64,000 nucleotides of DNA from Escherichia coli (lineage in GTDB: Bacteria; Pseudomonadota; Gammaproteobacteria; Enterobacterales; Enterobacteriaceae), in NCBI RefSeq assembly GCF_003334315.1, contig NZ_QOWR01000003.1. One strand, written 5' to 3'. The notes below the pieces were generated by a model. The model saw only the letters and a list, made by a program, of their open reading frames with translations, was not told the DNA's origin and did no database searches. The position numbers and the translations under genes are program-made. This document shows positions 46,567 through 47,256 of this stretch, one piece after another (within the stretch, counting starts at the first letter, position 1; each line of letters starts with the position of its first letter).

Positions 46567-46676
46567 CAGACATACCTCCGAAGCGTACTGCGCAGCCAGA
46601 CAATTCTTGCGACGTCAGTTGTGGTTAAAGTTTAGCCATATTGGGATTTTTTGACGAAACGGTGGGAGGCAGAAAT

Positions 46677-46790
46677 GGGTGGGGGCCCTGCCAGCTACAT
46701 CCCGGCACACGCGTCATCTGCCTTGGCTGCTTCCTTCCGGACCTGACCTGGTAAACAGAGTAGCGTTGCGGGAGAACCAACAGAGCCCCC
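46677..46790 (-). ncRNA. ffs: 4.5S RNA (signal recognition particle RNA)
   Basis: Minus strand reads GGGGGCTCTGTTGGTTCTCCCGCAACGCTACTCTGTTTACCAGGTCAGGTCCGGAAGGAAGCAGCCAAGGCAGATGACGCGTGTGCCGGGATGTAGCTGGCAGGGCCCCCACCC, 114 nt. Confidence 0.95.
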
Positions 46791-46866
46791 ATTGAGAGCG
46801 TTGAGAACCAACGCGCAGGCGCATTATCACTGCTGCCCCGGCTAATTGCAACCCATCGCGTGCCAG

Positions 46867-47256
46867 ATGCTGGTTTCTTGCGCAATGCGACTTCACTCGG
46901 GCGTTTTTCCAGATTATGCTGAAAAATTACCTCAGGAAGAAAAGATGGAAAAAGAAGATTCATTTCCCCAACGCGTCTGGCAAATCGTCGCCGCTATTCC
47001 CGAAGGCTATGTCACCACTTACGGTGATGTGGCGAAACTGGCGGGATCGCCCCGCGCCGCGCGCCAGGTGGGCGGTGTGTTAAAGCGTCTCCCTGAAGGC
47101 AGCACCTTACCCTGGCACCGGGTGGTTAATCGCCACGGCACAATTTCGCTAACCGGACCGGATTTACAGCGTCAGCGACAGGCATTACTGGCAGAAGGTG
47201 TGATGGTATCGGGAAGCGGGCAAATCGACTTGCAGCGTTATCGCTGGAACTACTAA
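46867..47256 (+). CDS. atl: Alkyltransferase-like protein
   Basis: PWHRV at 47110-47124 in place of the PCHRV active site of O6-alkylguanine alkyltransferases; start approximate (ORF track begins 46846). Confidence 0.75.
   Translation: MLVSCAMRLHSGVFPDYAEKLPQEEKMEKEDSFPQRVWQIVAAIPEGYVTTYGDVAKLAGSPRAARQVGGVLKRLPEGSTLPWHRVVNRHGTISLTGPDLQRQRQALLAEGVMVSGSGQIDLQRYRWNY

Follow-up and report, generated by a model that had tools for sequence, protein, structure and literature searches.

The ffs locus and its neighbours

The stretch of DNA analyzed here, which we refer to as the window, comprises 64,000 nucleotides from Escherichia coli. It includes ffs, an essential gene present in a single copy, which encodes the 4.5S RNA, the RNA subunit of the signal recognition particle. 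The mature RNA occupies positions 46677-46790 on the minus strand. The reverse complement of this interval reads GGGGGCUCUGUUGG...GGGCCCCCACCC and is 114 nt long, in agreement with the published size of the 4.5S RNA of E. coli (114 nt; PMC9099147). The Rfam model RF00169 (Bacteria_small_SRP) matches 46686-46782 on the same strand over its full length (model positions 1-97 of 97), and scores 68.1 bits (E = 5.5e-13; gathering score, 40). The first-pass annotation had placed a 114-nt 4.5S RNA at exactly 46677-46790 and had proposed a covariance-model search (SRP_bact) as the check; the coordinates are right, and the check returned this strong full-length match.

We searched the complete E. coli genomes for the stretch 46560-47000 and found it in 5,425 of 5,426, at 95-100% identity and at a median of one place per genome. 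In all the E. coli records listed, the features under the match are ybaA, ffs and a gene for an MGMT-family protein (PGAP annotation). PGAP labels the locus at 46677-46790 'ffs, signal recognition particle sRNA small type', and in none of the listed E. coli records does it annotate a CDS over ffs. We also note that a single complete genome gave no match to the ffs region, and that two of the matches lie on plasmid records.

The downstream neighbour of ffs is ybaA (46213-46566, minus strand), which PGAP annotates as a gene for a DUF1428 protein and which has a strong SD sequence (-10.8 kcal/mol). The divergent neighbour is atl/ybaZ (46945-47256, plus strand), which encodes an MGMT-family (alkyltransferase-like) protein (PGAP WP_000409911.1; NCBIfam TIGR00589, 53.2 bits). 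The start of atl/ybaZ is ambiguous. PGAP places it at ATG 46945, which gives 103 aa and has a modest SD; longer versions would start at ATG 46867 (129 aa) or TTG 46846 (136 aa), and these have no SD and overlap the conserved block upstream of ffs. The neighbours vary among enteric bacteria. Downstream of ffs, E. coli has ybaA, and other enteric loci (L122-L128) have two small genes and a GntR-aminotransferase gene. Upstream of ffs, two of these loci (L122 and L126) carry cas2 and type I-E-like CRISPR repeat sequence instead of atl.

Elsewhere in the window, Rfam models matched the dnaX frameshift element (29818-29882, minus strand, 96.8 bits), the sRNA sroB (15951-16034, minus strand, 82.1 bits) and two naRNA4 elements of the REP/BIME type. 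One of the latter lies at 14576-14653 (86.5 bits; the opposite strand also scores) and the other at 21714-21791 (minus strand, 74.3 bits).

The mature 4.5S RNA folds into one long hairpin of -57 kcal/mol (z = -3.15; 2 of 200 shuffled sequences were as stable), and the fold places a GNRA-type tetraloop, GGAA, at RNA nucleotides 53-56 (46738-46735, minus strand). This tetraloop is part of the domain IV core, GGTCAGGTCCGGAAGGAAGCAGCC, at RNA nucleotides 43-66 (46725-46748, minus strand). It is with this end of the hairpin that Ffh and FtsY interact. The domain IV 24-mer is invariant in all 18 aligned Proteobacteria, and among the matches listed it is present in exact form in more than 120 species from several phyla. 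The RNAalifold consensus of the 18-sequence proteobacterial alignment comprises 24 pairs; in 9 of them both sides have changed and pairing is retained. For instance, we observed UA:9/CG:9, AU:10/UA:7 and CG:10/UA:7, and one pair occurs as five standard types. This covariation is a signature of selection on the structure of the RNA.

Transcription of ffs and its 3' end as an integration site

A promoter scan combined with conservation identified a sigma-70-like promoter of ffs at 46823-46851 (minus strand). It consists of the -35 hexamer TTGCAA (46851-46846), a 17-nt spacer and the -10 hexamer GATAAT (46828-46823), followed by a G+C-rich discriminator, GCGCCT. Both hexamers are kept in 8 of 8 enteric loci, and the promoter is the sole sigma-70-like site in 46500-47100, where 0.2 are expected in shuffles. 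The predicted start site, G46816, is located 7 nt past the -10 hexamer and 26 nt upstream of the mature 5' end. It coincides with published RNA-seq data on pre-4.5S RNA, whose 5' ends lie "primarily at -26", with a few at about -127 and -153 (PMC5499578). These 5' ends define a leader, AACGCTCTCAAT (46791-46816, minus strand), which is cut off the E. coli precursor by RNase P (PMC5499578). The leader is conserved across enteric genera.

Upstream of the -35 hexamer, between -70 and -50, the alignment of enteric loci contains a further conserved block, ATTGCGCAAGAAACCAGCATC (46866-46886, minus strand). The block holds the palindrome TTGCGCAA, and its consensus form is ATTGCGCAA(G/T)AAACC..CA. 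It is kept in all the enteric loci, even those with a CRISPR array or cas2 upstream instead of atl. Because the block persists next to such different upstream neighbours, we attribute it to the ffs promoter, where it may represent a putative activator, regulator or UP-like site. Compared with the Fis consensus, the block is a half match only, and we draw no claim from it.

The terminator scan found no convincing intrinsic terminator downstream of the 4.5S RNA. One terminator-like site (46799-46785) was rejected because it straddles the 5' end of the RNA and falls within chance expectation (0.8). A candidate for the transcription end is the conserved AUUUC located directly after the long hairpin. 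A sequence scan found no terminator between ybaY and atl either, so that read-through from ybaY, antisense to atl, is possible on sequence alone.

Taken together with the literature, these features give the following course of expression. The sigma-70 promoter (TTGCAA/GATAAT) starts the transcription of ffs at about G46816, RNase P removes the 26-nt leader, and a few 3' nucleotides are trimmed by exonucleases. The work of Peck-Miller & Altman in 1991 and of Li, Pandit & Deutscher in 1998 is reportedly the source for this maturation by RNase P and 3' exonuclease trimming. The tip of the 114-nt hairpin (domain IV with its GGAA tetraloop) then binds Ffh, and the signal recognition particle formed in this way brings ribosomes engaged on inner-membrane proteins to FtsY and SecYEG. 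The hairpin has been described as binding Ffh near its tetraloop end and as supporting co-translational membrane targeting, with the Ffh-FtsY NG-domain complex shifting to the distal end of the hairpin during the handover of the ribosome to SecYEG (PMC9099147). RNase P processing, the transcript 5' ends and the function of the signal recognition particle are thus taken from the literature; the identity of the RNA, its covariation, the conservation of the promoter and the lack of protein-type conservation come from the present analysis.

In some E. coli strains the 3' end of ffs is also the attachment site of an integrase island; the site is unoccupied in the window. Its 22-bp core, GAAATGGGTGGGGGCCCTGCCA (46672-46693, read on the plus strand), is made up of the last 17 nt of the 4.5S RNA and 5 nt downstream, and was recognized from a direct repeat in NZ_CP135595.1. 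This genome (E. coli GDSC2227PM) has an island of 8,502 bp inserted between ybaA and ffs and flanked by the perfect 22-bp direct repeat (L130, 40619-40640 and 49121-49142). The island carries a site-specific integrase gene adjoining ffs, a recombinase gene, a gene for the R subunit of a type III restriction enzyme and an LprI-family gene. Of the 5,426 complete E. coli genomes, 51 (about 1%) carry the integrase-ffs junction. Integration at ffs fits the abrupt loss of similarity and the changed downstream neighbours that we observed after the RNA across genera. In 2025 a study of an Enterococcus phage presented an attachment site in ffs as novel (PMC12540744).

Open reading frames over the RNA

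Three minus-strand entries in the ORF list, all of which we regard as spurious, cover the RNA in its three sense frames. The longest is an ORF of 112 aa with an ATG start (46625-46963), the second sense frame holds an ORF of 60 aa with a GTG start (46714-46896), and the third an ORF of 38 aa with a TTG start (46695-46811). The first-pass annotation had pointed to the first two, which are indeed present at the coordinates it gave, and had called them almost certain artefacts. The 112-aa ORF begins antisense to the region of the atl start codon, runs through the promoter, the leader and the RNA of ffs and ends 52 nt past the RNA; the first 19 nt of atl overlap it on the opposite strand. Three small plus-strand ORFs are found as well, so that all six frames are open over the conserved core of the RNA.

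The G+C content of the mature RNA is 64%, compared with 52% for the window, and stop triplets are scarce in ffs because of it. To put the ORF lengths into perspective, we shuffled 46501-47100 2,000 times with the dinucleotides preserved. An ORF of 112 aa or more turned up in 14% of the shuffles and one of 60 aa or more in 86%. Such ORFs are also common in the window, where 186 ORFs of 60 aa or more (47 with 112 aa or more and 139 with 60-111 aa) each lie for the most part within a longer ORF. The sizes of the 112-aa and 60-aa ORFs are what chance gives at ffs. The sole unusual trait of the 112-aa ORF is its location in the gap between protein genes, and because it sits there an ORF-only pipeline would keep it. 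We attribute both ORFs to the small number of stop triplets in a structured RNA of this composition, which leaves all frames open; the 112-aa frame simply happens to run on into the flanks of ffs in E. coli.

The protein products gave no indication of belonging to known families. The 112-aa product has no Pfam match at E values up to 10 and no NCBIfam match at E values up to 1. For the 60-aa product the only family match was to NCBIfam CasA (E = 0.14; 11 bits, cut-off 70); we rejected it as noise. A ribosome-binding-site check had been proposed along with the first-pass annotation, and it showed the SD to be weak or misplaced for both ORFs. The pairing with the anti-SD amounts to -5.5 kcal/mol for the 112-aa ORF, where the G-run ends only 2 nt before the ATG, and to -3.3 kcal/mol for the 60-aa ORF; ybaA and ybaY reach -10.8 and -9.3, respectively. 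Short spurious sequences can receive high confidence scores in structure prediction (PMC9710616), so predicting the structure of the ORF product would not discriminate.

The two start codons differ in their position relative to the transcripts. The ATG of the 112-aa ORF (46963) lies at -173 relative to the mature RNA, farther upstream than any of the reported 5' ends (-26, -127 and -153), and falls within atl, whose coding sequence runs on the opposite strand. The GTG of the 60-aa ORF (46896) lies at -106, upstream of the main start site and inside the rare long precursors. A short peptide might thus be translated from the rare long pre-4.5S transcripts by way of this GTG, as the 5' ends at about -153 and -127 put it inside the transcript (PMC5499578). 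We consider this highly improbable. The ORF begins with a GTG, its SD pairing of -3.3 kcal/mol is very weak, its product has no family match, the long precursors are scarce and ribosomes would not get past the RNA hairpin. Moreover, the ends of the ORF are not conserved: Klebsiella and L127 lack its stop codon (a TGA located 32 nt beyond the point where the 24-mer begins), and other stops occur in the same frame in Vibrio and betaproteobacteria. More generally, the long transcripts could be translated from GTG 46896 or from another start, which would either produce a short peptide or couple translation to maturation. We think that there is very little chance of this, but if it were true it would make ffs a dual-function locus.

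Another explanation is that the 112-aa ORF is a real protein gene that overlaps ffs in the same orientation, making the locus dual-coding. The ORF starts with an ATG and lies in a gap that is otherwise 'intergenic', and a protein database search with its sequence returned 37 matches (E = 5.5e-69 to 5e-5), some of which are deposited as hypothetical proteins. The first-pass annotation had named conserved protein homologues of this ORF as the finding that would count against an artefact, and formally the 37 matches are such homologues; on inspection, however, they proved to be the same artefact in other genomes. Their clusters are tiny (1-52 members), and their lengths range from 63 to 193 aa. 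The sole name among them is "hypothetical protein" (in Shigella dysenteriae WRSd3, Klebsiella pneumoniae KPC03, an Enterobacter hormaechei MAG and a Caudoviricetes MAG), and the Shigella dysenteriae protein, 'hypothetical protein WRSd3_03293', is 112 aa long. The aligned matches share only ...LRNKPA..LAI...RDNAPARWLTTLSMGALLVLPQRYSVYQVRSGRKQPRQMTCVPGCSWQGPHPF, and their N and C termini are unrelated. When the translation is compared with the DNA of the window, GALLVL...GPHP corresponds to the RNA, ARWFSTLSM to the leader, DN to the -10 hexamer GATAAT and VAI to the -35 hexamer TTGCAA. The similarity is thus confined to the RNA and its promoter. Some matches even change frame: P0025 and P0026 begin in the 60-aa frame and continue in the 112-aa frame, P0034 and P0035 cross over to the 38-aa frame, and P0036 is fused to YbaA. 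One further match, the Caudoviricetes MAG protein (P0013), spans the complete ffs promoter and RNA; its viral contig probably contains the host flank beside an element integrated at ffs.

The same picture emerges at the DNA level. We aligned seven related enteric loci (L122-L128), fetched via the protein matches, and Providencia. The similarity starts at ATTGCGCAA(T/G)AAACC, about 20 nt upstream of the -35 hexamer, spans the promoter, the leader and the RNA, and ends abruptly after CCCACCCATTTC. Within this region the loci differ by 1-nt insertions after the -10 hexamer (L125 and L126) and in the leader (L123), and by a 3-nt deletion within the promoter and leader region (L122, L125 and L126). 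The indels that are not multiples of three argue against a protein gene, as does the loss of the ATG, which is AAG in the nearest relative (L124).

We also followed the 112-aa frame across the RNA itself. It is open in 5 of 5 Enterobacteriaceae loci examined, which might be read as support for a protein gene, but these frames are open because the RNA sequence is near-identical. Among more distant taxa, the frame is interrupted by stops within the RNA in 8 of the 13 sequences outside the Enterobacteriaceae (Providencia, two Vibrio, P. entomophila, Rheinheimera, a gamma MAG, Lautropia and Accumulibacter). The variable columns fall on codon positions 1/2/3 in numbers of 15/19/17 in the gammaproteobacterial and 8/4/2 in the enteric alignment, and these small numbers give no excess at the third codon position of the 112-aa frame in either alignment. 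We had also measured the length of the ORFs across the 24-mer in at least 120 loci. This measure is non-discriminating because most of the loci belong to alphaproteobacteria and actinobacteria of high G+C content, in which long ORFs commonly arise by chance, and it was dropped in favour of close relatives and the counts of stops inside the RNA.

Judged from these alignments, the conservation is that of the RNA and its promoter and not that of a protein. With the absent family match, the badly spaced SD, a start codon upstream of all reported transcript 5' ends and no such CDS called by PGAP in the listed E. coli records, we regard a 112-aa protein gene as having next to no chance of being real, and we infer that neither the 112-aa nor the 60-aa ORF is translated. 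Finally, the reading of the RNA in the window as a decayed or extra copy instead of the functional ffs, for which we found nothing in favour, is rejected outright because the RNA matches the covariance model from end to end, neither the hairpin nor the invariant domain IV is damaged, and the region occurs at one place per genome (median, 5,425 genomes) in the canonical ybaA-ffs-atl position. The minus-strand interval 46677-46790 is the ordinary, already known ffs gene of E. coli, and the ORFs lying over it are almost certainly not expressed as proteins.

An annotation artefact and its relation to known systems

The claim of the first-pass annotation that the two ORFs are artefacts is borne out by the lack of a curated family, of a credible ribosome-binding site and of protein-type conservation. 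It had further warned that ORF-only pipelines would mis-annotate this locus as hypothetical proteins, and the Shigella, Klebsiella and Enterobacter records are cases in which this has happened. The 37 database matches support the warning, because they resemble one another only where the ffs promoter, leader and RNA are translated, vary in their termini and lengths, and switch frames.

The biological weight of these observations is small, as ffs is found in textbooks and it is well recognised that annotation can produce spurious ORFs over structured RNAs. Their practical value is that of a worked example, in which the artefact is already public as a "hypothetical protein" in Shigella, Klebsiella and Enterobacter. 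Because a plain homology search gives significant E-values here, the statement that an ORF "has homologues" is an unsafe criterion for coding over a conserved RNA gene and its promoter.

A comparison with known systems places each component of the locus. With respect to ffs of E. coli (RF00169), the RNA in the window has the same sequence, length, genomic position and promoter, and the same hairpin, GGAA tetraloop and domain IV core; we found no difference. The integration site at the 3' end of ffs resembles the island sites at the 3' ends of tRNA and tmRNA genes, in that a tyrosine-type 'site-specific integrase' gene adjoins the 3' end of a stable RNA and the direct repeat regenerates that end. 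Unlike in those sites, the target is the gene of the signal recognition particle RNA.

The ORFs over ffs are an artefact of an already known kind, the AntiFam type. The AntiFam papers that we searched list families derived from tRNAs and report that ORFs lying over known ncRNAs were screened later; they make no mention of SRP. As with AntiFam-type spurious ORFs, the ffs ORFs lie on the sense strand of a conserved ncRNA, the similarity within their database 'family' is limited to the RNA-derived stretch, and few genomes deposit the 'hypothetical protein'. They are unlike AntiFam-type translations of ncRNAs in that their conservation also covers the promoter hexamers and the leader.
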